Assembly (NCBI GenBank): GCA_965243325.1 | Contig: CBDEUQ010000003.1 | Span: 30,508-94,507 of the forward strand | Direction of reading: 5' to 3' | Source: Alphaproteobacteria bacterium | GTDB taxonomy: Bacteria; Pseudomonadota; Alphaproteobacteria; UBA7887 | Length of the DNA: 64,000 bases | Shown: one piece after another, positions 11,580-64,000 of the stretch | Layout of the letters: each line of letters begins with the position of its first letter | How positions within the stretch are numbered: the first letter of the stretch is position 1 | Position numbers and translations under genes: made by a program | The notes under the pieces: model-generated | Seen by the model: only the letters and a program-made list of their open reading frames with translations | The model's database searches: none | Told to the model about the DNA's origin: nothing

Positions 11580-12590
11580 CTAGCCGCGGCCCATGTAGAG
11601 GTCGCGTCCCGCCGCGAGGGTCGCGATCTTGGCGTCGGCGATGCCGCGGTCGAGCATCCAGAAACCGCAGTCGGGGTGGATGTAGCGGATGCGGTCCGGT
11701 CCAATCGCGCGCGCCGCGCGTTCGATGGCGCGGGCAATCCCGTCGGCGGACTCGATCTCGGTGCGCTTGATGTCGACGACGCCGAGACCCATGCCGATGT
11801 CCGCCCTCAGGTCGGCGAATACGGCGAGTTCGGCCTCGGGCCGGTGGGCGGTCTCCATCACGATGTGGTCCGCGCGCAGGCTGTTCAGGTAGCCGAGCAG
11901 CGCGTCCCAGCCGCCCCGCTGCACCGACTGTCCGCCGTAGTTGCCGAAGCACAGGTGCACCGCCGGCGTCGTCGGCACGGCGTCCAGCACCCGGTTGATC
12001 GCCGCCGCCGCCACCTCGGCTTCCTCCGGATGCCCCGGCAGGTTCGCCTCGTCGATCTGGATCACGTCGGCATCGCAGTGCGCGACCTGCCCGGCAAGCA
12101 CGTCGGCGACGGCGTTGGCGAGCGAGGCGAGGTCGCCGTAGTGACGGTCGATCAGCACCTTCGCCAGCATGTGCGGGCCGGTCAGCGTGAACTTGAGCGG
12201 CCGCGACGTAAGCCGGCGCGCCCGCGCGCACGCCGCCGGCAGGTCGAGCGTGCCGCCGTCCAGCGGTCCCTCGACCACCCCGGGCGGCCGGCGGCGGTAG
12301 CCCGTGCCCGCCTGCTTGCGGTAGGCCTCGGCCTCGGCGAAGCCGATCTCGGTGCGAATGCCCCCCATCGGCGCGAGGAAGTACTCGATCATGCCGTTGG
12401 TCTCGGGGTGGTTCGCGTCGAAGCGGTAGAGCTCTCCGTCGCACACGAGGTCGATGCCGGCGCATTCCTGCGTGTGCAGCACCACGCGCGTCGCGTCGAC
12501 CAGCGTTCGCTCGGTCGGCACCGCCGCGAGCCACGCGGGAACGGGGTACGACCCGACGACCGTGGTCTTGATGTCCGCTTCCCGATCCAT
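11580..12590 (-). CDS. cobalamin-independent methionine synthase II (MetE C-terminal domain-like) family protein
   Basis: …TTVVGSYPVPAWL..., ...HTQECAGIDLVCDGE..., ...YIHPDCGF... are MetE C-domain / UroD-fold motifs. Internal ATG with GAGG RBS chosen as the start. Confidence 0.65.
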   Translation of the reverse strand: MDREADIKTTVVGSYPVPAWLAAVPTERTLVDATRVVLHTQECAGIDLVCDGELYRFDANHPETNGMIEYFLAPMGGIRTEIGFAEAEAYRKQAGTGYRRRPPGVVEGPLDGGTLDLPAACARARRLTSRPLKFTLTGPHMLAKVLIDRHYGDLASLANAVADVLAGQVAHCDADVIQIDEANLPGHPEEAEVAAAAINRVLDAVPTTPAVHLCFGNYGGQSVQRGGWDALLGYLNSLRADHIVMETAHRPEAELAVFADLRADIGMGLGVVDIKRTEIESADGIARAIERAARAIGPDRIRYIHPDCGFWMLDRGIADAKIATLAAGRDLYMGRG

Positions 12591-12820
12591 CGGCAGCCTC
12601 GGCTCCGGCGCGTTTCCGGGAGCGGTCTTGTAGCACATCGACCGCGTGCCGGCCGGAGACGCCGTCGGCGAGGAAGCGATTCGCGCCGATGCGCCGCTCG
12701 AGCCGACCGCCCGCCCCTGTACAGCGGCCCGCACCCCCGGGAGAACGCCGCCGCGCGACGATTGTCTTGGCGCCCGAGGTTGGCTAGGGTGCGCCTCGTT
12801 CGCCAGCCGGAAGCGATCAA

Positions 12821-13468
12821 GTGGCCGATATCTTCAGGGAAATCGACGAAGACGCCCAACGCGACCGTCTGCTCGCGTTCTGGCGGCGCTGGCGCTGGCA
12901 CGTCGTCGGCGCCGCGGCGGTCCTCGTCCTCGGCACGGCGGCCGGGGTCGGCTGGCGCGGCTTGCAGGAGTCTGCTGCCGCCGACCGCGGCGCCCGCTTC
13001 GCGGCGGCCATGCGGCTGGCCGAGGACGCGGCGTACGAGGACTCGGCGCGCGCCTTCGCGCGTTTCGCGGAGGAGGAAAGCGGTGATTACGCCGCGCTCG
13101 CGCGCTTGCGCCAGGGGGCCATGCTCGCCCAGGCGGGCGACGGGCTTGCCGCCGTCGGCGCCTACAACGTCCTGATCGATTCCGGCGCCGACCCGCTGTT
13201 CGTCGAGCTGGCGCAGGTGCTCGCCTCGCGCCATCTGATCGACCGCGGCGAGACGCGGGCCGCGGAAACGCGCCTGCAGGCGATCGCCGAGGGCGCCGGG
13301 CCCTGGCGCTTCCTGGCTCGGGAGATGCTGGCCGCCGCCGCTCTGCAGGACGGCCGCCTGAGCGAAGCGCGCCAGGGTTTCGAAGCGCTCCGCGACGAAG
13401 CGGGAGTGCCCGACGGCGTGCAGACGAGAGCCCGGCAACTGATCGCCGCGCTAGGGGGCGAACCGTGA
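12821..13468 (+). CDS. YfgM-like membrane-anchored TPR protein
   Basis: GTG start, N-terminal TM segment, TPR-like repeats; conserved position immediately upstream of bamB and der. Confidence 0.55.
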   Translation: MADIFREIDEDAQRDRLLAFWRRWRWHVVGAAAVLVLGTAAGVGWRGLQESAAADRGARFAAAMRLAEDAAYEDSARAFARFAEEESGDYAALARLRQGAMLAQAGDGLAAVGAYNVLIDSGADPLFVELAQVLASRHLIDRGETRAAETRLQAIAEGAGPWRFLAREMLAAAALQDGRLSEARQGFEALRDEAGVPDGVQTRARQLIAALGGEP

Positions 13469-14805
13469 CGGCGCGCGCCCTCGCGGCCCTCGCGGCGGGG
13501 CTTCTGGCGGGCGCATGCAGCGATACGTGGCTCGGCGACAGGCTGTTCGGCGACGACGATGCGGCCGATGCGCTGCCCGGCGAGCGCGTCTCGGTTCTGC
13601 TCCTCGAACGCACGCTCGAGGCCGACCCCGCGCTGGCGGGCGAGCCGGTGACGCTGCCGCCGCCGCTCGCCAACGCCGCGTGGCCGGTGCCGTGGGGAAC
13701 GCCGACGCACGCCCCGGGCCACCTCGCGGCCGACGGCGACCTCGCGGTGCTGTGGCGGCAGTCGGCCGGCGCCGGGGAGAGCGGCGAAAACATCGCCCTC
13801 TCGACCCCGGTCGTCGCCGACGGGCGCGCCTACCTGATGGACGCCGACTCCACCGTCGCCGCCTTCGCCCTCGAGTCCGGCCGCCGCGTATGGTCGCGCG
13901 AACTGCTCCCCGATCACGAGGACGGAAGCGCGATTCTCGGCGGCGGCGTCGCCTTCGCCGACGGCGTGCTCTATGCCGCGACCGCGTTCGGAGAGATCGC
14001 CGCCCTCGACGCCGCCGACGGCGCCGTGCTGTGGCGGCGCATCGTGGTCAGCGCCCTGCGCGCCGCGCCGGCGGTTGCCGGCGGCCGGCTTTTCGCCACC
14101 GGATTCGACAACCGCCTGTACGCGTTCGACGCGCGCACCGGCGAGCTGCTGTGGACCCACGAGGGTATCGTCGAGTCGGCCGGACTGGCCGGTGCGGCGG
14201 TGCCCGCGGTCAGCGGCGATCTGGTCATCGCCGCCTATTCGTCGGGCGAGGTGTTCGCGCTCAGGGTCGAGAACGGACGCGTCGCATGGACCGATTCGCT
14301 GATCCTGCAGGGGCGGCTGGGCGCGCGCACGAACCTGTCGGACGTGGACGCGAGCCCCGTGGTCGACGGCGACCTCGCGTTCGCGGTCAGCCAGGGCGGC
14401 AGCCTTGCCGCCATCGAGCTGCGCTCCGGCTTCCGCGTCTGGGACCGGGAGATTCCGAGCGCGCAAACGCCGTGGGTCGCCGGTGACTATCTGTACATCG
14501 TGACCGTCGATGCGGAAGTGGCGTGTCTGCGGCGGGCCGACGGGCGCGTCCGCTGGGTGGCGGCGCTGCCGCGCTACGAGGATCCGGAGGACCGCGAGGG
14601 GCCGATCCAGTGGACGGGGCCGGTCCTCGCCGGCGGGCGGCTCGTCGTCGCCAGCAGCCACGGCGAGATGCGTGAGCTGTCGCCCGCCGACGGCGCGGTG
14701 CTCGCGGTCCGCGCCCTGCCTGCCGGCGTGCGCGCGGCGCCCGTCGTCGCCGACGGGACGCTGTACGTGCAAACCCGGGAGGCCGATCTGGTCGCCCTGC
14801 GCTAG
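13465..14805 (+). CDS. bamB: outer membrane protein assembly factor BamB (PQQ-repeat lipoprotein)
   Basis: Lipobox LLAGC and repeated ...G.V.A.D...G...W beta-propeller motifs; overlaps the yfgM-like stop. Confidence 0.8.
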   Translation: MTARALAALAAGLLAGACSDTWLGDRLFGDDDAADALPGERVSVLLLERTLEADPALAGEPVTLPPPLANAAWPVPWGTPTHAPGHLAADGDLAVLWRQSAGAGESGENIALSTPVVADGRAYLMDADSTVAAFALESGRRVWSRELLPDHEDGSAILGGGVAFADGVLYAATAFGEIAALDAADGAVLWRRIVVSALRAAPAVAGGRLFATGFDNRLYAFDARTGELLWTHEGIVESAGLAGAAVPAVSGDLVIAAYSSGEVFALRVENGRVAWTDSLILQGRLGARTNLSDVDASPVVDGDLAFAVSQGGSLAAIELRSGFRVWDREIPSAQTPWVAGDYLYIVTVDAEVACLRRADGRVRWVAALPRYEDPEDREGPIQWTGPVLAGGRLVVASSHGEMRELSPADGAVLAVRALPAGVRAAPVVADGTLYVQTREADLVALR

Positions 14806-14826
14806 GCGCAGGAACGCCCGCGCGGA

Positions 14827-16170
14827 ATGGTGTGTCGAGTCGCCATCGTCGGGCGGCCGAACGTCGGCAAGTCCACCCTGTTCAACCGCCTCGTCGGTCG
14901 CCGGCTGGCGCTCGTCGGCGACCGGCCGGGGATCACCCGCGACTGGCGCGAGGGCAAAGGGCGCCTCGGGCCGGCGCGCTTCCGCCTGATCGACACGGCC
15001 GGTCTGGAGGACGCCTTCGGCGACAGCCTGGAAGCGCGCATGCTGGAGCGGACCGAGGCGCTTCTCGACGGCGTCGATCTGACCCTGTTCGCGCTCGACG
15101 GGCGGGCCGGCGTGACCCCGCTCGACCGCCATTTCGCGCGCTGGCTGCGCGCGCGCGGCGGCCCGGCGCTCGTTCTCGTCAACAAGGCCGAGGGGGGCGC
15201 CGGCGAGGAGGCGCTCCTCGACGCCTTCGCGCTCGGTCTCGGCGATCCGGTGGCGATCTCGGCTCAGCACGGCGAGGGCCTCGGCGACCTTTACGGCGCC
15301 ATGGTCGCCGCCTGCCCGGGGCTCGATGAAGCCGGGGCGGCGACGGCCGCGGCGGAGGACGTTCTCCGGCTCGCGATCGTCGGCCGTCCGAACGTCGGCA
15401 AGTCGACGCTGGTCAACCGCCTGCTCGGCGAGACGCGGGTGCTGACCGGACCCGAAGCGGGGATCACGCGCGACGCGGTCGCGGTGCGCTGGCGCTGGCG
15501 CGGCCGCGACGTGGAGCTGGTGGACACCGCGGGGCTGCGCCGCCGCGCCCGCGTCGCGGAAGAGGTCGAACGCGCCGCGGCCGCCGACACGCGGCGCGCC
15601 GTCGGCGCCTGCCAGGTGGCGGCCCTCGCGGTCGACGCGACCGCGCCCCTCGACCGGCAGGACGTGGCCATCGCGCGCGGCATCGTCGAGGAGGGGCGGG
15701 CGCTCGTCGTCGCCGCCAACAAGTGGGACCGCGTCGAGTCCCCGGATTCCGTGCGCCGGCGTCTCGACGAGCGGCTGCGAATGTCGCTGTCGCAGGCCCG
15801 CGGCGTCGCGCTCGTCCCCCTTTCGGCGCGCACCGGCGCCGGCGTGGAGCGGCTGATGCAGGCCGCTTTCGACTCTCGCGCGACGTGGAGCCGGCGACTG
15901 CCGACCGCGGAGCTCAACCGCTGGTTGGCGGCCATGCTCGAGCGTCACGCGCCGCCGCTGGACGGCGGGCGCCGCGTGCGCCTTCGCTACATCGCGCAGG
16001 TGTCCGCCCGGCCGCCGACCTTCGCGGTGTTCGTCAACCGTCCGCGCGGCGTGCCGGCGGCCTACGTCCGCTATCTCGTCAACGGCCTGCGCGACGCCTT
16101 CGACCTTCCGGGGACGCCGATTCGCCTTCTCCTTCGTTCCGGCCGCAACCCCTACGCGCCCGGCCGCTGA
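14827..16170 (+). CDS. der: ribosome-associated GTPase Der (EngA), two GTPase domains
   Basis: Two GRPNVGKST P-loops (IVGRPNVGKSTLFNRL and IVGRPNVGKSTLVNRL) plus a KH-like C-terminus. Confidence 0.9.
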   Translation: MVCRVAIVGRPNVGKSTLFNRLVGRRLALVGDRPGITRDWREGKGRLGPARFRLIDTAGLEDAFGDSLEARMLERTEALLDGVDLTLFALDGRAGVTPLDRHFARWLRARGGPALVLVNKAEGGAGEEALLDAFALGLGDPVAISAQHGEGLGDLYGAMVAACPGLDEAGAATAAAEDVLRLAIVGRPNVGKSTLVNRLLGETRVLTGPEAGITRDAVAVRWRWRGRDVELVDTAGLRRRARVAEEVERAAAADTRRAVGACQVAALAVDATAPLDRQDVAIARGIVEEGRALVVAANKWDRVESPDSVRRRLDERLRMSLSQARGVALVPLSARTGAGVERLMQAAFDSRATWSRRLPTAELNRWLAAMLERHAPPLDGGRRVRLRYIAQVSARPPTFAVFVNRPRGVPAAYVRYLVNGLRDAFDLPGTPIRLLLRSGRNPYAPGR

Positions 16171-16252
16171 GCCGGAGGCGGGCGGCGCTTGGTCCCGTAC
16201 CGCGGCACGCGCTATCGTGTCGCCGCTCGCAGCGAAGAGCCTCACGCCGTCC

Positions 16253-17542
16253 ATGCGAACCGGTTTCAGTCTCGCCCAGCTCGCCGATCCGGACACCGCC
16301 CGCGCCAATGAGATCCTGCGCGCGTGCGTGCACTGCGGCTTCTGCACGGCGACGTGTCCGACCTACGTCCTCGACGGCGACGAACGCGACAGCCCGCGCG
16401 GCCGCATCTACATGATCAAGGACATGCTCGAGAACGCCCGGCCGGCGCCGGACCGGGTTGTAACGCATGTCGACCGCTGCCTGTCGTGCCTTTCGTGCAT
16501 GACGACCTGCCCGTCCGGCGTTCACTACATGCACCTCGTGGACCATGCGCGCGCCTACATCGAGGAGACTCACCGCCGGCCCGTGGCCGAGCGGCTGTTG
16601 CGTGCGCTGCTCGCTCTCGTGCTGCCGCGCCCGCGCCTGTTCCGCCTGAGCCTGCGCGCGGCCGCCCTGGCGCGGCCCTTCGCCGCGCTCGCGCCGGGAC
16701 GGCTCAAGACGTTGCTGGCCCTGGCGCCGCGGCGCCTGCCCGCACGGCGTCCCGCGGACCGGCCCGGAACGTTCGCCGCCCGGGGGCCGCGCCGCGCCCG
16801 CGTCGCGTTGCTCGCCGGCTGCGTCCAGCAGGTGCTGGCGCCGGAGATCGACCGCGCGGCCATTCGCTTGCTCACCCGCCACGGATGCGAGGTCGTCGTC
16901 GCGCCGGGCGCCGGCTGCTGCGGCGCGCTCACGCATCACATGGGGCGCCGCCGGCCGGCGATGGTCGCCGCCGCGCGCAACGTCGCCGCGTGGAATCGCG
17001 AGATCGCGCGCGGCGGTCTCGACGCCGTCGTCGTCACCGCGTCCGGATGCGGCACGACGGTCAAGGACTACGGCCACATGCTGCGCAACGATCCGCGCCG
17101 GGCCGAAGACGCCGCCGCGGTCTCCGAGCGCACGCGCGACGTCAGCGAATGGATCGGGGAGCTCGGGCTGCGCGTCGCCGAGGGGCGGGCGGGAGGCCGG
17201 GTGGCCTATCAGTCCGCGTGCTCGCTGCAGCACGGGCAGAAGGTGACCGCGGCGCCGCAGGCGCTGTTGCGCCGGGCGGGTTTCGAGGTGGTCGAGCCGG
17301 CGGAAGGGCATCTGTGCTGCGGGTCGGCGGGAACCTACAGCCTGCTGCAGCCGCGAATCGCGGATTCGCTGCGCCGGCGCAAGCTCGCCGCCCTCGCCGC
17401 CTGCGCCCCCGACATGATCGCAAGCGGCAACATCGGGTGCATGACCCAGCTGTCGGACGCCGCGGTTCCGATCCTGCACACCGTGCAGTTGCTGGACTGG
17501 GCCACCGGCGGCCCCGATCCGCGCCCCGCGGCAACGGCGTGA
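16253..17542 (+). CDS. glcF: glycolate oxidase iron-sulfur subunit GlcF
   Basis: Two ferredoxin-like Cys clusters (CVHCGFCTATCP, CLSCLSCMTTCP) and C-terminal CCG domains (CCGSAGTY, CMTQL). Confidence 0.8.
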   Translation: MRTGFSLAQLADPDTARANEILRACVHCGFCTATCPTYVLDGDERDSPRGRIYMIKDMLENARPAPDRVVTHVDRCLSCLSCMTTCPSGVHYMHLVDHARAYIEETHRRPVAERLLRALLALVLPRPRLFRLSLRAAALARPFAALAPGRLKTLLALAPRRLPARRPADRPGTFAARGPRRARVALLAGCVQQVLAPEIDRAAIRLLTRHGCEVVVAPGAGCCGALTHHMGRRRPAMVAAARNVAAWNREIARGGLDAVVVTASGCGTTVKDYGHMLRNDPRRAEDAAAVSERTRDVSEWIGELGLRVAEGRAGGRVAYQSACSLQHGQKVTAAPQALLRRAGFEVVEPAEGHLCCGSAGTYSLLQPRIADSLRRRKLAALAACAPDMIASGNIGCMTQLSDAAVPILHTVQLLDWATGGPDPRPAATA

Positions 17543-17552
17543 ACGCGGCGGC

Positions 17553-18872
17553 ATGACGGCGGTCGGCGGCCGCCACCGCCTCGTCTGGCGGCTCGCGGTG
17601 CCCAACATTCTCGCCAATCTCACCATTCCGCTGCTCGGCGCCGTGGATACCGCCGTCGTCGGGCGGCTCGGCGCGGCGGAGATCGGCGCGGTGGCGGTGG
17701 GGGCGACCGTCTTCGCCTTTCTCTACTGGGGCTTTTCGTTCCTGCGCATGGGAACCGCCGGCTTCGCCGCGCAGGCGCACGGCGCCGGAGACGGCGAAAC
17801 CCTGCTCGCGGTCCTCCTGCGCGCCGCCGCCATCGCCGTCTGCGTCGGCCTAGCGTTGATCGCGCTGCGGGGGCCGATCGTCATGGGGGCGCTTGCGCTC
17901 ATCGCACCGAGCGAAACGGTGACGCCGCTCGCCGAGCGCTATCTGGACATACGTATCTGGGGCGCACCGGCGGCGGTCTGCAACATGGTGCTGCTCGGCT
18001 GGCTGCTCGGGCGCCAGCGCATGGTGCTCGGCCTCGTCCTGCAGCTCGTCATCAACGGCGCCAACATGTTCCTCGACGTCGTCCTCGCGGTGTGGCTCGA
18101 GATGGCAGTGGACGGCGTCGCCCTGGCGACCGTGATCGCGCAGTATCTCGGCTTCGTCGCCGGGCTGTGGGTGGTGCGCCGCGAAAGCCGTCGGATACGC
18201 GCCGCGTGGCCGTGGCGCACCGCGTGGCGCCGGTCGGCGCTCGCGGCGATGATGCGCCTCAACCGCGACATCTTCCTGCGCACCGTGTGCGTCGTCGCCG
18301 CGAGCTCGATGCTGACCGCGATCGGCGCGCGCTTCGGCGACCTCATTCTCGCCGCCAACGGCATCCTGATGCTGTTTCAGGCGTTCATGTCCTACGGCCT
18401 CGACGGCTTCGCGCACGCCGCCGAGGCGCTCGTCGGCGCCGCCGTGGGCAAGCGCGACCGCGCCGACTTCGCCACCGTCGTGCGGGTGTCCACAGTCTGG
18501 GCGGCGGTGACCGCGGCCGTTTACACCGTGGTCTTCGCCGTCGCCGGCATCGCCATCGTGGGCCTCGTCACGACCCTCCCCGAGGTGCGTGCGACGGCGG
18601 CGGAATATCTGCCGTGGGCCGTGCTCTCGCCGCTGGTGTCCGTCTGGGCGTTCCAGCTCGACGGCGTCTTCATCGGCGCCACGCGCGGCCGCGTCATGCG
18701 CAACGCCATGCTGGCGGCCTTTGCCGGCTATCTGGCGGCGCTGGCGGTGTTCGTCCCGATGTGGGGGAACCACGGGCTGTGGTTCAGCTTCATGATCCTT
18801 ATGGCGTTGCGCGGCGTGACGCTCGGCGCCGCCTATCCGAGTCTTGCGCGCAGCCTGGGCCGGGCAGATTGA
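17553..18872 (+). CDS. MATE family efflux transporter
   Basis: 439 aa, 12 predicted TM helices with MATE-like duplicated halves. Confidence 0.7.
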   Translation: MTAVGGRHRLVWRLAVPNILANLTIPLLGAVDTAVVGRLGAAEIGAVAVGATVFAFLYWGFSFLRMGTAGFAAQAHGAGDGETLLAVLLRAAAIAVCVGLALIALRGPIVMGALALIAPSETVTPLAERYLDIRIWGAPAAVCNMVLLGWLLGRQRMVLGLVLQLVINGANMFLDVVLAVWLEMAVDGVALATVIAQYLGFVAGLWVVRRESRRIRAAWPWRTAWRRSALAAMMRLNRDIFLRTVCVVAASSMLTAIGARFGDLILAANGILMLFQAFMSYGLDGFAHAAEALVGAAVGKRDRADFATVVRVSTVWAAVTAAVYTVVFAVAGIAIVGLVTTLPEVRATAAEYLPWAVLSPLVSVWAFQLDGVFIGATRGRVMRNAMLAAFAGYLAALAVFVPMWGNHGLWFSFMILMALRGVTLGAAYPSLARSLGRAD

Positions 18873-18942
18873 GGGTGAAATTCACGCTCCGCCCGGCTAT
18901 GAAGGAGCCCGTTTTTCGCAATCCCGAGCGCAGGACCGTGGC

Positions 18943-20100
18943 ATGAAGATCGCGATTCCGAAGGAACGTCGCGGCGGCGAACGACGCGTGGCCGCCTCGC
19001 CGCAGACGGTGAAGAAATTCGCCGAGTTCGGTGCCGAGGTGGCGGTCGAGGCGGGGGCGGGCGCGGCTTCGGCGATCGACGATTCGGCCTTTGCCGAAGC
19101 GGGCGCGACCATCGCCGGCACCGCCGACGAGGCGTGGGACGGCGCCGACATGGTGCTCAAGGTCCAGCGCCCCATGACGGCCGACGAGGGAGAAGACGAG
19201 ATGGCGCGGCTGGCTGGCGGGTCGCTGCTCGTGGCCCTGCTCGCGCCGCTTCAGCACCGCGATCAGATCGAGGGCTACGCGAGCCGGAACGTCACCGCCT
19301 TCGCCATGGAGCTGGTGCCCCGCATCAGCCGGGCGCAGAGCATGGACGCGCTGTCGTCGCAGAGCAATCTCGCCGGCTACAGGGCGGTGCTCGACGCCGC
19401 GGCGGAGTTCGGCAAGGTCATCCCGATGATGATGACCGCGGCCGGCACCGTTGCCCCGGCCAAGATTCTCGTGCTCGGAGCCGGCGTCGCCGGTTTGCAG
19501 GCGGTCGCCACCGGCCGCCGACTCGGCGGCGTGGTATCCGCGTTCGACGTGCGCCCGGCGGTCAAGGAGCAGGTCGAGAGCCTCGGCGCGAAGTTCATCG
19601 AGGTCGCCGACGACGAAGCCGGGAGCGCGGAGACGGCGGGCGGGTACGCGCGCGAGATGGGAGAGGACTACCGCCGCCGCCAGGGCGAGCTGATCCGCGA
19701 GACCATCGGCGGCCAGGACATCGTCATCTGCACCGCGCTGATTCCCGGTCGGCCGGCGCCGACGCTGATCACCGCCGACATGGTCGCCGGGATGAAGCCG
19801 GGCTCGGTGATCGTCGATCTGGCCACCGAAACGGGTGGCAACTGCGAGCTGTCCGTCCACGGCGAGGTCGTGCGCGTCCATGGCGTGGCGATCGTCGGAC
19901 ACGCCAACGTGCCGAGCCGCGTCGCCGTGGACGCCAGCGCGCTCTACGCCCGCAACCTGCTCAACTTCGTCGCTCCGATGATCGACCGCGAGACCCGGTC
20001 GCTCAAGATCGACTGGGAAGACGAGGTCATCGCCGGCGCGTGCGTGACGCGCGACGCCGCCGTGGTGCATCCGATGCTGACCGATGGAGGCGGCGCATGA
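18943..20100 (+). CDS. pntAA: NAD(P) transhydrogenase subunit alpha part 1 (dI)
   Basis: [26 protein letters not shown]...; Rossmann motif [11 protein letters not shown]; AGGA RBS. Confidence 0.9.
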
Positions 20101-20420
20101 TCGACCCGTTCATCCAGGATTTCACGATTTTCGTCCTCGCGGTGTTCGTCGGCTACTACGTCGTCTGGAGCGTCACCCCGGCGCTCCACACGCCGCTGAT
20201 GTCGGTGACCAACGCCATATCCGGCATCATCGTGGTTGGCGCGCTGATCGCCGTCGGCGCCGGATTCGCCGACGCCCCGCCGGCCGGGGATGACGCGGGC
20301 GGCGGGCTGTCGTTCTCCAAGGCCATGGGCTTTGTCGCCGTGGCGCTCGCGTCGGTGAACATATTCGGCGGCTTCATCGTCACGCAGCGCATGCTGCAAA
20401 TGTTCCGCAAGAAGCGCTAG
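20097..20420 (+). CDS. pntAB: NAD(P) transhydrogenase subunit alpha part 2 (membrane part)
   Basis: ATGA start/stop overlap with pntAA; 107-aa membrane protein [24 protein letters not shown]... Confidence 0.85.
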
Positions 20421-54457: not shown

Positions 54458-54573
54458 TGGAGGTGGAGGAGGGCTTGGAGAAGGTGAGCGGCGGGGGGCC
54501 GGGGGGAGAGATCGTCCCGGCTTCCCGTCGTTCGCAAACCATCGTCAGAATCCTGAGCCACAAGGAGATAGCA

Positions 54574-55041
54574 ATGGCTTTCGGAAAGAACTACGCGGAA
54601 ATCGTCGGACACCTCGGCGGCGATGTCGTCATCAACCATCTCGCCTCGGGCGGGCGCGTCGCGAACTTGAGCGTGGCGACCGACGAGTCCTATTTCGACC
54701 GCGCCGGCCAGAAGGTCGACCAGACCGAGTGGCATCGCGTCGTCACCTTCCAGGACGGGCTGATCGACATGCTGGAGCGGCACGCCAGGAAGGGCCGGCT
54801 TATCAGCGTCGAGGGCAAGCTGCGGACGCGGCGCTGGAAGAAGGACGGCGACGACTCCTGGCGCTACTCGACCGAGATCCTCGTCGTGCCGGGCGATCGG
54901 GTCCAGTTCTACGACAAGCCGAACCGCGCCAACGGCAACGGCGCCCAGGCCGAGCCCGCTCCGGCGAACGGCGAGGCGATGCCGGCCGGCGGTGACCCTG
55001 CACAGGCCGACGACCTCGGATCGGATCGTATCCCCTTCTGA
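54574..55041 (+). CDS. ssb: single-stranded DNA-binding protein
   Basis: OB-fold N-domain (…WHRVVTFQDGLIDMLERHARKGRLISVEGKLRTRRWKKDG...), Gly/Pro/Ala-rich linker and acidic tail ending DDLGSDRIPF. Confidence 0.8.
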   Translation: MAFGKNYAEIVGHLGGDVVINHLASGGRVANLSVATDESYFDRAGQKVDQTEWHRVVTFQDGLIDMLERHARKGRLISVEGKLRTRRWKKDGDDSWRYSTEILVVPGDRVQFYDKPNRANGNGAQAEPAPANGEAMPAGGDPAQADDLGSDRIPF

Positions 55042-55074
55042 GCCGGTTCCCCTCCCTCCCAACTCGGGCGGCCG

Positions 55075-55100
55075 TTTCGGCGGTCGTCCTTTTTTTCTGC
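55075..55100 (+). terminator. weak terminator-like hairpin plus T7 run after ssb
   Basis: GCCGtttCGGC followed by CCTTTTTTTC. Confidence 0.3.
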
Positions 55101-55184
55101 CGTGGGTCCGGTGTCCGCCGCCGCGCCGGGAGTGGAGAAAAGCGGAGGGTCGGGCAAGCCGACTGAAGAGAGAGGGAGGAGGCC

Positions 55185-55622
55185 ATGGCCATCCGCTACG
55201 TCATCCGCACCGTCGACGAGGACTGGATCGATCTTGTCGACGAACCCGTCCGCATCGACGACCGCCGCGCCGCCTGGGCCGAGGTCCGGCGCCGCATCGC
55301 CGCCGATCCCGATCTGAAGACCGTCGTCATCAATCGCGACAACGGCGCGATCCTCTGGCAGAGCGATCCCGACGTTCCGCCGCGCTACCGCGTCGCCACC
55401 GCCGACCGGACGTACGTCTACGCCATCGACGATGTCGACTTCCCCATTGAGGTCCTCTCCGAGCACAAGGAGAAGGACGACGCCTGGACCGCCTTCTACG
55501 ACGCGGTTGCGGCCTCCGGCGACGAGCTGGTGTTCATCTTCGACATCTCCGGGCCGCAGCGCCGCATCGTCGCCAACTCCGACGATTTCGATCATCTCAA
55601 GCCCGTCCGGGACGTGGCGTGA
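55185..55622 (+). CDS. hypothetical protein (145 aa)
   Basis: Strong RBS GAGGGAGGAGG; no recognised domain. Confidence 0.45.
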   Translation: MAIRYVIRTVDEDWIDLVDEPVRIDDRRAAWAEVRRRIAADPDLKTVVINRDNGAILWQSDPDVPPRYRVATADRTYVYAIDDVDFPIEVLSEHKEKDDAWTAFYDAVAASGDELVFIFDISGPQRRIVANSDDFDHLKPVRDVA

Positions 55623-55942
55623 TGCCGGGCCGGTCGCGTAGGCGGACGGGAGGGTTGGGCGACCCCCTTCGGGGCCGGGCTCTCCGCTCATATCGTCACT
55701 CGCTGGCGCTCGCGCCGAAACCGCTGCGATCCCTGTCGCCTCCGCCCGCTGGCGCGGGCTGCGCGCTCCGCTTGCCAATGCGCCCGGCAGGTCCGGGGAT
55801 CGTTTCCAGGGCCGTGCAGGCCGAGAGGCCGATGGGGTCCGTGCAGGTGGAGAGGGAGGGGCTGGCCGCTGTGCTGTCTCATTGTCCCACACGTGCTCGG
55901 GCCAGCAACCCCTGCGGGGTCCTCCGCTCCGCTCCGGCCTGG

Positions 55943-56055
55943 CCCAAGAAGCTCTAGGGCGGACCGTGAAAGTTGCCGACCGTGAAGATCGCTGGCGCGA
56001 TCTTCCGCACCACTCGCCGACTTTCCGCACCACTCCGCCCAAGAGCTTCTAAGGC
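55943..56055. repeat. repeat-rich intergenic segment (candidate cis-acting site such as oriT, iteron or recombination site)
   Basis: Bounded by CCCAAGAAGCTCTAGGGC (55943-55960) and CCCAAGAGCTTCTAAGGC (56038-56055). Inside are GACCGTGAA x2, the palindrome GATCGCtggcGCGATC and TTCCGCACCACTC x2. Confidence 0.6.
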
Positions 56056-56138
56056 CAGGTGCTCGCCCTGTGCGCGCGTGAGCCAAAGAGACATCACATC
56101 GGCGCACAACGCTCCGGTGCATCCAACAGGAGACCGTC

Positions 56139-57068
56139 ATGAACATCATCGAGAACATCGACACCATCGAAGCCGGCGGGCAGTCCGCCACCGCGACCGC
56201 CTGCGAGCACGCTGCCCTCTTCGGCGCGACCCCCGAGCGGGACGAGTTCGACACCCGGGACGTCTGGGACGCCGACGAAGCGATCTGCGCCATGCAGGAA
56301 GCCTTCGGGCTCCTCGCCGACGCCGTCGCACCGGACGGGTTCCAGCTCGCCGACGAACGCGAGAGCCTGCTGTGGGGCTTCGTCAACATGCTCGACGCCC
56401 AGACCAACCGCCTCGACCGCGCCGCCGACAAGCTGATGCCCGAGCTGCGCGATCTCCAGCGCGAGCAGGACGGCACCGAGATCAAGTCGTTCGAGCTGGA
56501 ACTGAAGACCGACCGCGCGCAGAACCTCACCGCGCGCCGCGATGCCTTCGAGACCCTGCGCGACGCAGCCGCCGAGAGCTACCGCGACGCCACCGGCACC
56601 ACCTGGCGGCCCCGGCGCGGATCGCACGTCTCGCAGACCGGCACGCTCACCTCCGCCGCCATCGACGCCCGCGACTTCGCCCGCGCGAGGCAGGACCGCA
56701 AGACCGCCGCGCACCTGCCGCAGGGCACCCTGGTCGCCATCGCGGGCGGCAAGGACGTGACCGACCCCGGCGCGGTGATCGACATGCTCGACAGGACCCG
56801 CGCCAAGCACGCCGACATGGTGCTCGTCCACGGCGGCGGCCCCGGCGTCGAGAAGATCGCCGCGCGCTGGGCCGAGCGCAACGGCGTCCACCAGGTCGTC
56901 TGCAAGCCGGACTGGGACCGCCACGGACGCGCCGCCCCGTTCCGCCGCAACGAGGAACTGCTCAACCTCCTGCCGAAGGGCGTCATCGCGTTCCCCGGCA
57001 GCGGCATCACCGAGAACCTCGTGGACCGCGCGCGGCAGCTCGGCATCCCAGTCTGCCGCGCGAGCTGA
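56139..57068 (+). CDS. DUF2493 (SLOG / DprA-LOG-like Rossmann) domain protein with an uncharacterised N-terminal region
   Basis: C-terminal ...LVAIAGGKDVTDPGAVIDMLDRTRAKHADMVLVHGGGPGVEKIAARWAERNGVHQVVCKPDWDRHGRAAPFRRNEELLN...VIAFPGSGITENLVDRARQLGIPV matches DUF2493. Confidence 0.55.
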   Translation: MNIIENIDTIEAGGQSATATACEHAALFGATPERDEFDTRDVWDADEAICAMQEAFGLLADAVAPDGFQLADERESLLWGFVNMLDAQTNRLDRAADKLMPELRDLQREQDGTEIKSFELELKTDRAQNLTARRDAFETLRDAAAESYRDATGTTWRPRRGSHVSQTGTLTSAAIDARDFARARQDRKTAAHLPQGTLVAIAGGKDVTDPGAVIDMLDRTRAKHADMVLVHGGGPGVEKIAARWAERNGVHQVVCKPDWDRHGRAAPFRRNEELLNLLPKGVIAFPGSGITENLVDRARQLGIPVCRAS

Positions 57069-57857: not shown

Positions 57858-59009
57858 ATGCGCATCTACGCCACCGTCAACGACCGGACCGCGCGCCGAA
57901 GTTTCAGGGAACAGAAACACCGCAAGCGCCCGCTGACCGTGCTGGACCATACGCTGCCCGCCTTCGGCTTCAACATCGCCGCCGACGATACGCGGACGTA
58001 TTTCGTCCGTGTCGTCCGCAAGCTGGGCGCGGACAACATCGCCCTCGGCAAGACCACGGAAACGACCGCCAACGAGGCGCGGGCGAAGGCCGTCACCGAG
58101 ATCGAGGCGGCGCAGGTCGAGCGCAAGGCCGGGCCGCTGATGCGCGACTTCGCCGACGAGTTCATCCGCCGCCGCGCCCATCGCTGGAAGCCGTCCACCC
58201 GGAAGAGCAATCTTTACCTGCTGGGGCGATACATCCTTCCCCCGCTTGGCGGACTGCGGGTCGCGGCGATAACCCGCGCCGACGTGCGGCGCTGGTTCGA
58301 TTCCATGAGCGGCACCCCCGGCGTCGCCAACCGCACCCTGCCGGTGTTGTCGTCGATGATGACCGCCGCCGAGCTTTGGGATATCCGGCCCCAGGGCTCC
58401 AATCCCTGTCGCAACATGCGCCGCTACAGGACCGCCCCGCGCGAGCGCTTCCTGTCGGCGGACGAGTTGAAGCGCCTCGGCTTCGTGCTCGACCACGCCG
58501 AGGACCGGCAGGCCGCCGCCGCGATCCGGCTGCTGCTGTTCACCGGGGCGCGGTCGTCGGAGATCGCCGGGCTCAGGTGGGACTGGATACGCGAGACCCG
58601 CGCGGTGCTGCCGGACTCGAAAACGGGGCCGAAGACGATCCAGCTTCCCGCGCCCGCGCGGGCCGTGCTCGCGAGCCTGCCGCGCGATGGCGCGTTCGTA
58701 TTTCCCAGCCGGAAGGGCGACGGGCCGATGGCCGACCTTGCCAAGCGCTGGCTCAAGCTCCGCGCGCTCGCCGGGCTGGAGGACGTGCGCATCCATGATA
58801 CCCGCCACACATACGCCTCCCATGCGGTGATGGGCGGCCTCGACCTCTACACCGTGGGCCGGTTGCTGGGCCATGCCGATACCGGCTCGACCGAGCGCTA
58901 CGCCCATCTTGCCGACGGGCATTTCCGCGAGGCGGCGGGACGGATTTCCGGGATCGTCGGTGGTGCGCTGGCCGGTGGCCGGAAGCGGGAGGCGGATCAT
59001 GGCGAATAG
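57858..59009 (+). CDS. tyrosine integrase with a divergent N-terminal arm region, first of the second tandem pair
   Basis: Catalytic domain with HDTRHTYASHA...TERYAHL; the N-terminus (MRIYATVNDRTARRSFREQKHRK...) is atypical or shortened. Confidence 0.75.
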   Translation: MRIYATVNDRTARRSFREQKHRKRPLTVLDHTLPAFGFNIAADDTRTYFVRVVRKLGADNIALGKTTETTANEARAKAVTEIEAAQVERKAGPLMRDFADEFIRRRAHRWKPSTRKSNLYLLGRYILPPLGGLRVAAITRADVRRWFDSMSGTPGVANRTLPVLSSMMTAAELWDIRPQGSNPCRNMRRYRTAPRERFLSADELKRLGFVLDHAEDRQAAAAIRLLLFTGARSSEIAGLRWDWIRETRAVLPDSKTGPKTIQLPAPARAVLASLPRDGAFVFPSRKGDGPMADLAKRWLKLRALAGLEDVRIHDTRHTYASHAVMGGLDLYTVGRLLGHADTGSTERYAHLADGHFREAAGRISGIVGGALAGGRKREADHGE

Positions 59010-60183
59010 GACCGGGAAGACACGGCTCAAGGTCGCGGCCATCGCCGCCGCGAGGCCGAAGGCGCGCGAATACACGCTCTGGGACGGAACGCTCAGGAGC
59101 TTCGGGCTGCGGGTCCAACCCTCCGGCGCGAAGTCGTTCATCGTCCAGACCCGCGCGCGGGGCCGGATGCGCAAGATCACGCTCGGGCGATTCCCGGACA
59201 TGAGCCTCGCCGACGCGCGCACGGAGGCCGCCGCTGTCCTCGCCCGTATCTGGGCGGGCGAGGACTTGGCCCCGCCGCGCAAGGTCAAGGCCCCCGTGTT
59301 CCGCGACTTCGCCGCGCGCTACCGGGAGCGGCGCAAGGACGTGTGGAAGCCGTCCTCGCTGGAGACCTTCGACATCTACATGCGAGGTCGGCTCCTGCCC
59401 GCCTTCGGACGGTTCAAACTCGACACCATCGACCATGCGCGGGTCTCGGCGTGGTTCGATGCGGCGAGCGAGGAGCGCCCCGGCGCGGCCAACCGGGCGT
59501 TCGACATCCTGCGCGCCATGCTCAAGACCGCGCGGCAGTGGGGCGAACTCGGCGAGCATGTCCCCGACGCCTGCGCCAATATCACGGTGAACCCGAAGAA
59601 GCCCGTCGCCCGCTATCTCGACAAGGACGAGATCGCCCGACTCGGCGCGGCGCTGGACCGGCACGCCGGGGACCGCCCCTGGCACGTGGCGGCGCTGCGC
59701 TTGCTGGCGCTGACCGGGGCGCGGCTCTCCGAAGCGGTCAACCTGCGGTGGGACGAGATCGCCGCCCTGTCCGAAGACGGCGCGAGCGCGCGCATCGAGG
59801 ACTCCAAGACCGGCCCGCGCACGATCTGGCTCGGGCCGGAAGCGGCGAAGCTGGTGGCGGCGCTGCCGCGCACGGGAGGGGCGGAGCGCGTGTTTCCCGA
59901 AAACCTTACCACGTCGAGGCTCTACGACTTCTGGTGCCGTGTCCGGGAGGAGGCGGGGCTGTCCGGTCTCCGCATCCATGACTGCCGCCACACATGGGCC
60001 TCGCAGGGCATCATGAACGGCGTGGGTCTCCCCACCGTCGGGCGGTTGCTCGGACACAGGCGGCTGGCCACCACCGCGATCTACGCCCATCTCGACGACA
60101 ACGCCTTGCAGGCTGCCGCCGAGAAGGCGGCGAGCCGAATCGCGAAGGCAATGGGGTTCGAAGCCGAGCCGTCACCGCTATAA
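58999..60183 (+). CDS. P4-type tyrosine integrase, second of the second tandem pair (overlaps the previous gene by 11 nt)
   Basis: …LKVAAIAAARPKAREYTLWDGTLRSFGLRVQPSGAKSFIVQ... arm domain; HDCRHTWASQG...TAIYAHL catalytic motif. Confidence 0.85.
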   Translation: MANRTGKTRLKVAAIAAARPKAREYTLWDGTLRSFGLRVQPSGAKSFIVQTRARGRMRKITLGRFPDMSLADARTEAAAVLARIWAGEDLAPPRKVKAPVFRDFAARYRERRKDVWKPSSLETFDIYMRGRLLPAFGRFKLDTIDHARVSAWFDAASEERPGAANRAFDILRAMLKTARQWGELGEHVPDACANITVNPKKPVARYLDKDEIARLGAALDRHAGDRPWHVAALRLLALTGARLSEAVNLRWDEIAALSEDGASARIEDSKTGPRTIWLGPEAAKLVAALPRTGGAERVFPENLTTSRLYDFWCRVREEAGLSGLRIHDCRHTWASQGIMNGVGLPTVGRLLGHRRLATTAIYAHLDDNALQAAAEKAASRIAKAMGFEAEPSPL

Positions 60184-60941: not shown

Positions 60942-62336
60942 ATGCGCATCGATTTTGTCCTTGCCTCTGCCGTGTTCATGGTTACCGCCTGCGGAGGTGG
61001 CGGAAGCGGAGGCAAGCTCGCCCAGATGACGCAACAGCCGGACGAGACTCCGGCTATGGTCGCTCCCACCAAAATCGCATTTGCTCCTTCCTCCAGCGGA
61101 CACTACAGGACGGACGGTCTGCCTGGACCGGCAATTTCCGACGCGAAATACATGCCAATCTATCGGGATGATGACCGTATTCTTGTCGGGGTCGAACAAA
61201 CTGCCAATTTTTTACGCAGCCTTCCAGTTATCGCCAAGACCGCGAGTGGCGCAGATATTCGATATGGAATTGTTGATGATGGCGCGGGCGGAAATATCGT
61301 CCGAGAATATCTCAATCAAGTAACCGATGTTCTATTTTCGCATATCGTTGGATTTGAATGGGACGGAAGACCGCAAGTAACTTATGGAGGACATGCATCT
61401 CCTGACGATGTGGAGCGTCTAATCCGTTCCATCCAGCTTGTGAACGTCGCTCTACCGGAATCGCGGAAAATGGAACTCCCTTCCGCGTCTCCCTATCCTT
61501 TGCCGCAAGGTCCCAACTCCGGCATTCATGTCTTTTTTCTCGATCCCGAAAATGATCCTGATTATTGGGGAATAACTTTCAACACGAGAAATGGAGATAC
61601 GCTAAAATCCAACATTTCCATCAGCGCGCATTACACCGATGCTGGTGATCGGCGAGCAACTATTCTACTGGCTCATGAGATTCTACATGCGTTGGGTCTT
61701 GGCGATCATGTTGCGGAATCCCACGATAGCATTTTGGAAGCGGGCAGGGGAATTTATGAGAGGCAACAGAACTCGCCGCAGCCATTGTCCTTGCTCTATA
61801 ACGAAGACCGCGAAGCGCTCCGGGGATTATACGATCCGTCACGATTGGGATCTTGGGCGAATACAGGTTTGCATATCGCCGGACACGGACAGCACACGGC
61901 CTTCGGCGTTGCGCTGCGCAACGGTTATGCCGAGCCATGGGCTTACGGCTATACGCCGAACAGCGACCTTGCCGATAATCGTAGCCTGTCCGGTTCGGTG
62001 AAATGGAGCGGCGAATTGCTCGGGTTGACCCCGGACGCGGCGGCTGTCGCGGGCGATGCTGCGATCAACGTCAATCTGCCATCCATGACGGGCCGGGCGG
62101 ACTTCACCAATCTTGAGACATGGGGCGGGAACACCGCGCCCGGCGCTGCCGGGAGCGGCGCGACATGGCTCGATGGCGATCTCGGCTATGGCATCGCCGT
62201 TCGCGGTAACACCTTCCGGGAGACCGGCGGCGATGACGGGCGCTTGACGGGCATATTCACCGGGCGCTCGCATGAAGGCGCGGCGGGTACGCTTGATCGC
62301 ACCGACCTTACGGCGTCGTTCGGAGCGTCGCGGTAG
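60942..62336 (+). CDS. lipoprotein with a zincin (HExxH) metalloprotease-like motif; lower GC than the backbone
   Basis: Lipobox MRIDFVLASAVFMVTAC; HEILHALGLGDH motif; Gly-rich beta-type C-terminal region ending ...TASFGASR. Confidence 0.5.
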   Translation: MRIDFVLASAVFMVTACGGGGSGGKLAQMTQQPDETPAMVAPTKIAFAPSSSGHYRTDGLPGPAISDAKYMPIYRDDDRILVGVEQTANFLRSLPVIAKTASGADIRYGIVDDGAGGNIVREYLNQVTDVLFSHIVGFEWDGRPQVTYGGHASPDDVERLIRSIQLVNVALPESRKMELPSASPYPLPQGPNSGIHVFFLDPENDPDYWGITFNTRNGDTLKSNISISAHYTDAGDRRATILLAHEILHALGLGDHVAESHDSILEAGRGIYERQQNSPQPLSLLYNEDREALRGLYDPSRLGSWANTGLHIAGHGQHTAFGVALRNGYAEPWAYGYTPNSDLADNRSLSGSVKWSGELLGLTPDAAAVAGDAAINVNLPSMTGRADFTNLETWGGNTAPGAAGSGATWLDGDLGYGIAVRGNTFRETGGDDGRLTGIFTGRSHEGAAGTLDRTDLTASFGASR

Positions 62337-62544: not shown

Positions 62545-63429
62545 CTACTCAATTGGAACAACGTTGAAATTTCCATCAAATCCCAGTTTTACCGCTGGCT
62601 CCTTCATGATCTTCAGGAAATTCTCCATTTCGTCACATTCGGCCAAGAGGTCATCTAGAATTTTCATGTAGTACTTCGACTTCTGACTCGCCACTTCGTC
62701 AGAAGCTGGTGCCTGAGAATTGATCTTTTCCTTGTACGAATTTATCCACGTGCGAACTATATCCAGATTACGCTTACACTTCTCGGGTTCAGAGATGTTT
62801 GCCCCGGCAACATTCGTCAATTGCTGAAAAGGAAACAGTACAGTTACTTCGCAGGTGGAATCTACCCTGGCCATTCTATCAAACATCTCTCCGACACATG
62901 AATCTGTTTCTTCTCGTATGTATCGCACAACCTTCGGATCGACTTCAACAAACGGCGTGGCTCCATCGTTCTCAGACATGCGGAACGCTCGAACTGACTT
63001 TTCTCCCGTTAGCGCATTCTGATAACCAGCGCCTATAAACTGTTCATCGCTGTGAAAAATGCTACCTCTTGTAATATAGCCTCGAACCATGACGCCGAAT
63101 TCCAATAAACCGATAATGGACTGCGATATGTGTTCAATCAGATTGATTATCCCCGCTGGGGAAATCTCCGTAGAGATGATGGCGCAGTCTGATATCTGTG
63201 TGACCCTGTAGTCCAAGTCGCGGCTTTCGTGCCGACTCTCGGGACAAATGATTGGTCCATAAGCAGCAATAGATTGAACATGTGACTTGGATTCCAGCTC
63301 TGCACAGATTGCAAGCAGATCGGTCAGGCGGTCGCCACTACCACCTTCGGCGGCTTCTACCTTGGATTTGAATCCAAGTATGTCCACAAAGGCCACGAAT
63401 TTATCGCGAAATTGCGGTTCGAACGTCAC
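62545..63429 (-). CDS. class III nucleotidyl cyclase-like (adenylate/guanylate cyclase fold) protein, low GC
   Basis: FVAFVDILGFKSKV (cf. hhFxDIVGFT), QISDCAIIST (cf. IGDxhhh), MVRGYITRGSIFH...FIGAGYQNALTGEKS (cf. RIGIHTGPV...GDTVNLASRLE). GC falls to roughly 45% by eye. Confidence 0.45.
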   Translation of the reverse strand: MTFEPQFRDKFVAFVDILGFKSKVEAAEGGSGDRLTDLLAICAELESKSHVQSIAAYGPIICPESRHESRDLDYRVTQISDCAIISTEISPAGIINLIEHISQSIIGLLEFGVMVRGYITRGSIFHSDEQFIGAGYQNALTGEKSVRAFRMSENDGATPFVEVDPKVVRYIREETDSCVGEMFDRMARVDSTCEVTVLFPFQQLTNVAGANISEPEKCKRNLDIVRTWINSYKEKINSQAPASDEVASQKSKYYMKILDDLLAECDEMENFLKIMKEPAVKLGFDGNFNVVPIE

Positions 63430-63442
63430 GGCGTTATTGTTC

Positions 63443-64000
63443 CTATCGTTTCAGTGGTACGGCGCTCTCGCTCATGGCCAGCAGCGTAGCGAGAGCTTCA
63501 TCCTCGGAAATCCCCGCTTCCCATCCATAGGCCGCAGCAACGGCGCCGTCCAGCGTAGCGTGCGCATCCGAGAGCCATTGCGGGCGGGTATTGTAGAGGT
63601 TCGTGAGCGTCCGGGCCTTGAGTTCCTTCGCCGCCGCCTCATCGCGCGCGACCGGGCGCTTCGGATAGCCTGGCGCCGGCTCGTCCACCCACTCGACCCA
63701 CTCCGGCGGGTTGAGCCAGCGGTCGCGGAGTTCCACCAGTCGCCGAGCGGCATCGGCTATGGCGACGGCGCGCGGCTCATCCGCGTAGTCGGCGGCGGGG
63801 ATGTTCGGCGAGAGACCGTCCGGGAAGGGGAAGGTCTCGAAGGTGGTGGTCGGCGTGTAGCGCGGCCGATCCTCAAGGCTGGTGCCGAGCCGAAGCGACC
63901 ATGCCTCGTGGAACCGGCTGTGCAGGATGCCGAAGGTCACATCGTCGTCGCGGGCGATGACGATCACTTGGCTGTCGGGCAGGACGCCCGCGTCGAGCCA
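63443..64000 (-). CDS. C-terminal part of a large SAM-dependent DNA methyltransferase (type IIG / PglX-like family); N-terminus beyond the window
   Basis: …ILHSRFHEAWSLRLGTSLEDRPRYTPTTTFETFPFP..., ...TLTNLYNTRPQWL...LDGAVAAAYGW... are blocks I associate with the C-terminal region of MmeI/PglX-type methyltransferases. The ORF is open to the window edge. Confidence 0.45.
   Translation of the reverse strand, partial: WLDAGVLPDSQVIVIARDDDVTFGILHSRFHEAWSLRLGTSLEDRPRYTPTTTFETFPFPDGLSPNIPAADYADEPRAVAIADAARRLVELRDRWLNPPEWVEWVDEPAPGYPKRPVARDEAAAKELKARTLTNLYNTRPQWLSDAHATLDGAVAAAYGWEAGISEDEALATLLAMSESAVPLKR

Follow-up and report, generated by a model that had tools for sequence, protein, structure and literature searches.

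A cyclase-fold protein family encoded behind an MmeI-family restriction enzyme and beside diverse bacterial defence genes: a candidate stand-alone nucleotide enzyme of defence islands

Enzymes that generate nucleotide signals or deplete nucleotides are central to bacterial immunity, as in CBASS, Pycsar, type III CRISPR and Thoeris, and they have counterparts in eukaryotes. Abortive-infection enzymes can also reside inside restriction-modification (R-M) operons, such as PrrC in the EcoprrI type I locus, where it is held inactive by the R-M enzyme. MmeI-family R-M enzymes are single-chain enzymes for which a partner is not needed. Here we describe a gene at the right end of a 64,000-nucleotide stretch of DNA, in the following called the window, from an Alphaproteobacteria bacterium (lineage UBA7887; GenBank assembly GCA_965243325.1, contig CBDEUQ010000003.1, positions 30,508 to 94,507 of the forward strand). 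The gene encodes a protein of 294 amino acids, the focal protein, and follows the 3' end of an MmeI-family gene. According to an original prediction made from the sequence alone, it was a nucleotidyl-cyclase-like, possibly Pycsar-like gene next to an R-M/BREX-type methyltransferase. Our preferred reading, to which we give an even chance of being right, is that the focal family, not described before, comprises stand-alone nucleotide enzymes with a cyclase fold that belong to defence islands; each would constitute a single-gene module for defence or abortive infection.

Pycsar is defined as a cyclase acting together with a receptor/effector that carries a cyclic-nucleotide-binding domain (PMC11224242). 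Compared to the Pycsar cyclases PycC (8jsz, 7r65, 8jsf), the focal family is without a match to the PycC models and without an adjacent cyclic nucleotide (cNMP)-binding effector. Compared to the class III cyclase homology domains (CHDs; PF00211; Rv1900c, CyaB, CyaC and soluble guanylate cyclase), the core of the focal family has an extra Cys-containing loop, and the focal protein adds a C-terminal helical hairpin of ~90 residues with a conserved Lys but has no sensor or regulatory domain. The likeness to PrrC/EcoprrI is one of working mode and not of homology, in that a non-R-M enzyme is co-transcribed with an R-M enzyme on a mobile island; PrrC, however, is an ABC-ATPase-like anticodon nuclease of unrelated fold, the R-M partner in the window is a single-chain type IIG enzyme, and most focal-family members have no R-M partner. 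Searching the literature by concept and accession, we did not find a published description of the focal family, nor did the search return a paper on a conserved downstream cyclase-fold partner of MmeI-family enzymes.

The gene and the two regions of its product are located as follows.

62545..63429, minus strand: focal gene, 294 aa, of a cyclase-fold family without prior description (open reading frame (ORF) call; GTG start at 63429..63427, stop codon included)
62830..63429, minus strand: class III cyclase-like palm domain, residues ~1-200, with D16, S80-D81, R116, G122, H126 and E143 near-universal
62602..62826, minus strand: C-terminal helical region, residues ~202-276, mainly two long helices (215-239 and 245-276) forming a hairpin, with K250 (conserved superfamily-wide) and C265 (conserved in the core family)

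This ORF is a functional gene and not a chance ORF, because it has 405 homologues at E<=1e-3, almost all of them 280-300 aa long, because an exhaustive profile search retrieved 3,559 representatives of 50%-identity clusters at E<=1e-3, and because the ratio of non-synonymous to synonymous substitution rates (dN/dS) is 0.10-0.21 in pairwise comparisons of five close copies. The family is present in many phyla, and an exact copy of the window protein is not on record in the contig collection searched. Local DNA scans revealed no tRNA, Rfam family, terminator or meaningful repeat near the gene.

Sequence profiles place the focal protein nowhere. No model of Pfam, NCBIfam or PADLOC matches it at E<=1, which includes Guanylate_cyc (PF00211; hmmscan against Pfam-A), and nothing was matched by ten distant relatives scanned with the same three libraries; the two PHROG families matched by the focal protein are both of unknown function. 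Searches of PDB sequences (one with the single sequence, two with profiles) gave nothing significant, the best profile-search matches being Rv1625c at E values of only 1.3-2.2. The AlphaFold2 model built from a 53-sequence alignment is confident (mean pLDDT 87.9, pTM 0.85) and contains the CHD palm core (beta-alpha-alpha-beta-beta-alpha-beta). All 50 matches listed by Foldseek against the PDB are class III cyclase-type domains (best E 3.4e-5), with 8-20% identity in the structural alignments, and a viral structure library returned only giant-virus cyclase-domain proteins; the C-terminal hairpin gave generic helical matches only. The relationship to cyclases, as read from this model, rests on structure and not on sequence. 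When aligned by hhalign with five real CHDs taken from the PDB, the focal family matched VAFVDILGF to ILFSDIVGF at beta1, weakly (E 0.013), in the right order and register, and the use of a more diverse superfamily profile gave a match at beta4-alpha5 with an E value of 2.3e-4 and a probability of 44%. The cyclase fold claimed in the original prediction is therefore borne out by structure, and the three cyclase motif blocks on which the claim was based are genuine in position, as these in-register matches indicate; the profile searches did not place the protein outside the cyclase fold. An identity as GGDEF or Cas10-mCpol palm synthase was rejected, since GGDEF and Cas10 structures are absent from the Foldseek PDB matches listed and the GGDEF/GGDD hairpin motif gives no support either. 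The Pfam scan detected no sensor, regulatory, DNA-binding or output domain in the focal protein, and domain fusions are absent from the best 150 matches of the exhaustive hidden Markov model (HMM) search. Family proteins, at ~240-320 aa, would generally consist of the palm domain and the C-terminal helical hairpin.

The conservation of candidate active-site residues was counted over 254 family members, comprising 227 core members and 27 distant relatives with 18-25% identity.

D16 (63382..63384, minus strand): 221/227 core, 27/27 distant
S80: 219/227 core, 27/27 distant
D81 (63187..63189, minus strand): 224/227 core, 27/27 distant
R116 (63082..63084, minus strand): 222/227 core, 26/27 distant
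H126: 225/227 core, 24/27 distant
E143: 220/227 core, 26/27 distant
K250: 213/227 core, 25/27 distant

G117, G122, P159 and a basic residue at position 10 are near-universal too, and both metal Asp positions are kept in at least 97% of the 254 members. D16 was aligned by hhalign on the first metal-binding Asp at the end of beta1; D81, situated at the beta2-beta3 turn of the model, would by topology be the second metal Asp, and the residues from R116 to G122 follow the canonical RxGxxxG spacing of cyclases. The hhalign register pairs GAGYQNALTGE with GPSVNIAARLQ, i.e., with the NxxxR motif of helix alpha4, and thereby puts Q137 at the position of the transition-state Asn (Q138/H33/L13/N8 in the 227 core members) and T141 at that of the transition-state Arg (E60/S31/K28 and others). 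Four residues ahead of D81, T77 probably corresponds, by motif offset, to the base-specifying Lys/Glu position; it is Thr in 202/227 core members. Judged from these alignments, the focal protein retains that half of the site which in cyclases binds the two metals and the phosphate, with a conserved set of its own in place of the rest: the two-metal Asp pair and the beta4 phosphate-binding Arg are held under very strong constraint, and K/R10, S80, S86, H126, E143 and K250 would take the place of the base-specifying and transition-state residues. The loss of the canonical residues weakens the case for cyclase chemistry, short of excluding it. PycC clades themselves share only the two Asp residues and vary in their specificity residues (PMC11224242). 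An active-site role of K250, with H126, E143 and K250 converging on the Asp pair, may be considered as a candidate idea. The core family shows no variation at three cysteines, C62 (63244..63246), C178 (62896..62898) and C265 (62635..62637); the loop that contains C62 is clade-specific, and two of the three are mostly missing from distant relatives. In clade D Pycsar cyclases the C-terminal extension harbours a zinc site of the Cys3His type (PMC11224242); by analogy, a Cys3(His) site for zinc may be considered for the focal protein, again as a candidate idea only.

Upstream of the focal gene, on the same strand, the window ends within an R-M gene.

63443..64000, minus strand: 3' end (last 185 codons) of an MmeI-family type IIG R-M gene, comprising the end of the target recognition domain (TRD) and the C-terminal domain; the gene continues past the window
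63430..63442, minus strand: junction between the MmeI stop codon and the focal GTG, 13 nt, TAG-gaacaataacgcc-GTG

The fragment matches Pfam MmeI_TRD (2.2e-8; 34.2 bits, cut-off 27), MmeI_C (3.5e-7; 30.8 bits, cut-off 27) and the PADLOC model REase_MTase_IIG (7.7e-46), and it does not match PglX. A syntenic metagenomic locus, L001, is 88.7% identical to the window at the DNA level over 2.1 kb and encodes the closest full-length homologue of the enzyme, to whose C-terminus the window fragment is 91% identical (shared 184 aa). This enzyme carries the MmeI_N nuclease, the MmeI_hel helicase-spacer, the gamma-class MmeI_Mtase and MmeI_TRD, and scores 1.8e-304 with the type IIG REase_MTase model vs 2.8e-6 with PglX. 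PglZ and BrxC are absent from the stored flanks (<=10 kb) of four homologous loci (L003, L105, L106 and L107). By the far better type IIG score, the nuclease domain and the absence of PglZ/BrxC from these flanks, the neighbour is best classified as a stand-alone type IIG R-M enzyme rather than a BREX component, and BREX was rejected on the same grounds; of the MmeI/PglX-type methyltransferase originally proposed, the MmeI part holds and the PglX/BREX part does not.

The same gene order, MmeI gene followed by focal gene on one strand, recurs in five loci, whose flanks otherwise differ.

Window: gap of 13 nt; focal protein 100% identical (reference)
L001: gap of 16 nt; focal protein 92% identical to that of the window
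L003: gap of 16 nt; focal protein 81% identical
L107 (=L006): gap of 16 nt; focal protein 83% identical
L106 (=L008): gap of 27 nt; focal protein 55% identical

At the window junction a weak AGGA shares bases with the stop codon TAG of the MmeI gene, and a scan found no promoter-like site on the minus strand between the two genes. Co-transcription is likely because of this tight junction and the absence of a promoter-like site on that strand, and the focal gene, which comes second in this conserved two-gene cassette, would then share a transcript with the MmeI-family type IIG gene ahead of it on an integrase-carrying island. This fits a course in which a stand-alone mobile gene became, in one clade, the second gene of an MmeI operon.

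The neighbourhoods of the wider family were sampled at 84 loci, with 865 ORFs within +/-6 kb clustered by blastp. There is no conserved neighbour beyond the MmeI clade, with no cluster in more than 5 of the 84 loci, and the 136 immediate and 130 second-tier neighbours comprise 124 and 114 Pfam families, respectively. The tight same-strand partners that can be identified include a type I HsdM in L040 (focal gene then HsdM, 8-nt gap; PADLOC MTase_I 2.1e-161), a HEPN AbiU2 (focal then AbiU2, 4-nt overlap), a nuclease associated with prokaryotic Argonaute (pAgo; focal then nuclease, 4-nt overlap; 2.5e-80), an OLD-TOPRIM/GajA-like protein (followed by the focal gene, 15-nt gap), whose matches are weak (Pfam 1.1e-4, just under the gathering cut-off; PADLOC GajA 1.3e-5), and the PADLOC candidate PDC-S31 (followed by the focal gene, 1-nt overlap). 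Among the loci sampled, these identifiable partners are strikingly often defence genes, and of diverse kinds. The 4-nt overlaps and gaps of 8-16 nt in several independent clades point to operon membership and not mere co-location. In further sampled loci, the focal gene lies between IS6-family copies near an Eco57I-type methyltransferase (MTase) and a PLD nuclease in L110, behind an integrase and adjoining an N6_N4 MTase/HNH/ResIII cluster in L111, and on the border of an island that contains RadC, DprA-like, HNH and FRG genes in L108 (Bordetella bronchiseptica MO211). The general defence-island setting that had been proposed is supported. In L108 (9048..10912), a 318-aa gene without family match overlaps the focal start by 4 nt and may be a clade-specific partner.

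One alternative, which we regard as unlikely, is that the focal protein is a dedicated accessory or guard of R-M enzymes that, like PrrC, is held inactive and fires when a phage anti-restriction protein inhibits the R-M enzyme. The MmeI operon is conserved across 55-92% focal protein identity, and among the neighbours that can be identified, R-M genes are the most frequent (type IIG with 4/136 immediate neighbours, HsdM in L040, Eco57I/PLD in L110 and N6_N4 MTase/HNH/ResIII in L111), as a guard would lead one to expect; most family members, however, have no R-M gene nearby, the other tight partners (AbiU2, pAgo-associated nuclease, OLD-like protein, PDC-S31) are unrelated to R-M, and the single-chain MmeI-family enzymes require no partner. 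In L105 (9574..10885), where a 136-aa 3' remnant is all that is left of the MmeI partner, the focal gene has stayed intact under purifying selection; L003 has its MmeI gene split by an IS21 element, and between L001 (550..4336) and L106 (7115..10882) the MmeI proteins are 88% identical and the focal proteins 56%. The split gene, the remnant and this mismatch in divergence argue against a strict dependence on MmeI; the L001/L106 comparison suggests either allelic replacement or a much faster evolution of the second gene. About 7 kb away, L105 also carries a separate integrase-adjacent island (12277..20276), which comprises a complete MmeI gene together with genes for an AAA_15/AAA_21 ATPase, a DEAD helicase and T5orf172. 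By analogy, a PrrC-like guard role is attractive for the MmeI and HsdM clades and would leave the other partners and the stand-alone copies unexplained. The autonomous enzyme of our preferred reading is supported by the absence of a conserved neighbour over the 84 loci, the absence of fusions among the best 150 matches and the intact L105 gene; such an enzyme would use NTPs, take part in conflicts with phages or mobile elements and ride in many kinds of defence operon.

Improbable as well, in our judgement, is a catalytically dead cyclase-like binder of nucleotides or metal that serves as sensor or regulator, e.g., by modulating neighbouring genes, as could be imagined after the class III cyclase-like ATP-binding protein 6yii. 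The near-absolute conservation of the metal Asp residues, S80, R116, H126 and E143 at ~20% identity is more typical of catalysis, DNA-binding or output domains and fusion partners are lacking, and the diversity of partners is too great to suit a specific regulator.

The gene is mobile, as supported by its occurrence in many phyla and on prophage and viral contigs, by the IS-flanked copy of L110 and by the allele divergence of L106. Distant relatives were found on prophage and viral contigs, of which 8/19 viral-contig relatives lie within ~2.2 kb of the contig or predicted prophage end (L087, L089, L090, L091, L093, L096, L102, L103); contig and prophage ends are the usual place of cargo and defence genes. 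INPHARED phages and E. coli gave no match, and plasmids gave four distant matches. In L021, L051, L058, L065 and L071 the copies seem to be cut short or frameshifted, with ORFs of 117-212 aa beyond which the tblastn matches continue (assembly error is possible). Within the window the focal gene sits in a sharp GC trough, and the low GC noted originally is confirmed: its GC content is 0.47 and its GC at third codon positions (GC3) 0.50, as against 0.68 and 0.81 in the abutting upstream gene and a GC of ~0.69 in the surrounding 24 kb. This contrast is found in all five cassette loci (GC3 of 0.47-0.50 for the focal gene and 0.75-0.86 for the MmeI gene), although synonymous divergence (dS) has reached ~1.0 in the focal gene (window vs L003, L105 and L107) and 0.75-0.89 in the MmeI 3' end (window vs L003 and L107). 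As the GC3 contrast persists at a dS of ~1, the reading of low GC as a simple mark of recent transfer was rejected. The opposite composition of the two genes could possibly reflect selection for an AT-rich or rare-codon sequence, e.g., for low expression or silencing of a toxic protein, or alternatively a downstream allele that is repeatedly replaced from an AT-richer pool.

With such mobility, the gene could be a passenger or selfish mobile-element gene that lacks a defence function, serves addiction or maintenance and co-accumulates in variable islands, a reading to which we assign a low probability. The patchy distribution across phyla, the IS-flanked, prophage-end and apparently fragmentary copies, the persistently atypical composition and the many unremarkable housekeeping neighbours would suit a passenger, but the 4-nt overlaps and 8-16 nt gaps with defence genes in several independent clades, the strong purifying selection and the lack of a recurring cognate antitoxin-like partner speak against it.

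For the Pycsar-like reading, the PycC models of PADLOC-DB 2.0.0 match neither the focal protein nor ten distant relatives at E<=1, and in the window and L001 the downstream gene is a convergent lipoprotein gene followed by integrases, with no adjacent cNMP-binding effector. When the first- and second-tier neighbours of ~80 loci are taken together (266 in all), no cNMP-binding or TIR family is present in as many as two of them, and no cNMP-binding, TIR or transmembrane (TM) effector recurs. Pycsar was rejected because the effector and the PycC match are both absent, and the system is not merely incomplete in the window, as originally supposed, because the family is effector-less at full-length homologous loci as well. 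A Pycsar-like signalling cyclase that makes a cyclic nucleotide on infection and relies on an effector elsewhere in the genome or on a host protein is very unlikely, given that neither PycC nor Guanylate_cyc matches, that no effector recurs in the 266 neighbours and no cluster in more than 5 of the 84 loci, and that a trans-encoded effector fits poorly with a gene that moves alone between phyla.

Several points weigh against the stand-alone defence enzyme that we prefer. The defence role is guilt by association, as no homologue is characterised; a fair share of loci have housekeeping neighbours only, e.g., L004/L005; and homology to cyclases at the sequence level is marginal, the best hhalign probability being the 44% given above. 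Since the family does not retain the canonical transition-state Asn/Arg and the base-specifying Lys, catalysis is itself no more than putative, and the domain may instead serve to bind a ligand. If the preferred reading is correct, the protein would bind metal and NTP and act through its own catalysis, by nucleotide conversion or depletion or by a small-molecule product, without a dedicated co-encoded effector. A more far-reaching version, which we put forward as doubtful, holds that the family is a new single-protein immune enzyme in which the hairpin would supply in cis the residues (candidate K250) of a cyclase second subunit. Its chemistry would be a non-cyclase NTP chemistry (depletion or a novel product), it would form a portable second layer for type I and type IIG R-M, AbiU2, pAgo nuclease and OLD/Gabija-like systems, and its AT-rich sequence would be selectively maintained, e.g., to keep a toxic enzyme silenced or its basal expression low.

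The remaining features of the island lie downstream of the focal gene.

60942..62336, plus strand: convergent ORF of 464 aa, context only and outside the conserved cassette, with a lipobox-like N-terminus (..VTAC) and a zinc-protease motif
57858..59009 and 58873..60183, plus strand: tandem paralogous tyrosine integrases (Phage_integrase 2.2e-18 and 2e-20; Arm-DNA-bind_3 3.1e-16)

The 464-aa ORF has a GC content of ~0.5 and contains HEILHALGLGDH, a metzincin-type HExxHxxGxxH motif; it has no match in Pfam, NCBIfam, PADLOC or PHROG, and of the family loci compared, L001/L002 alone have a homologue, with a gene call of 571 aa. The two integrase ORF calls overlap, and the same tandem pair in the same order is present in L001; the integrase-bearing character of the island, as originally claimed, is confirmed by this pair (57858..60183). 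The repeat pairs ~1,160-1,190 nt apart reflect integrase paralogy only. Further upstream of the integrases, a single-stranded DNA-binding protein (SSB) gene and a YAcAr/SLOG-domain gene (54562..57068, plus strand) belong to the same families as a pair in L105 (391..2108), which suggests a common integrative-element backbone of the window and L105.

The focal family is large, spread over many phyla and represented by a confident model in which the two-metal site is obviously constrained; Pfam, NCBIfam and PADLOC nevertheless contain no model for it, and it is found inside operons of at least five unrelated defence types. Its links to defence are strong though circumstantial, and the locus should carry neither a Pycsar nor a BREX annotation. 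The MmeI-linked cassette offers a simple two-gene construct for asking whether the module backs up restriction. If it is a defence gene, it would represent a cyclase-fold system that does not need a dedicated effector and that is missed by current defence finders.

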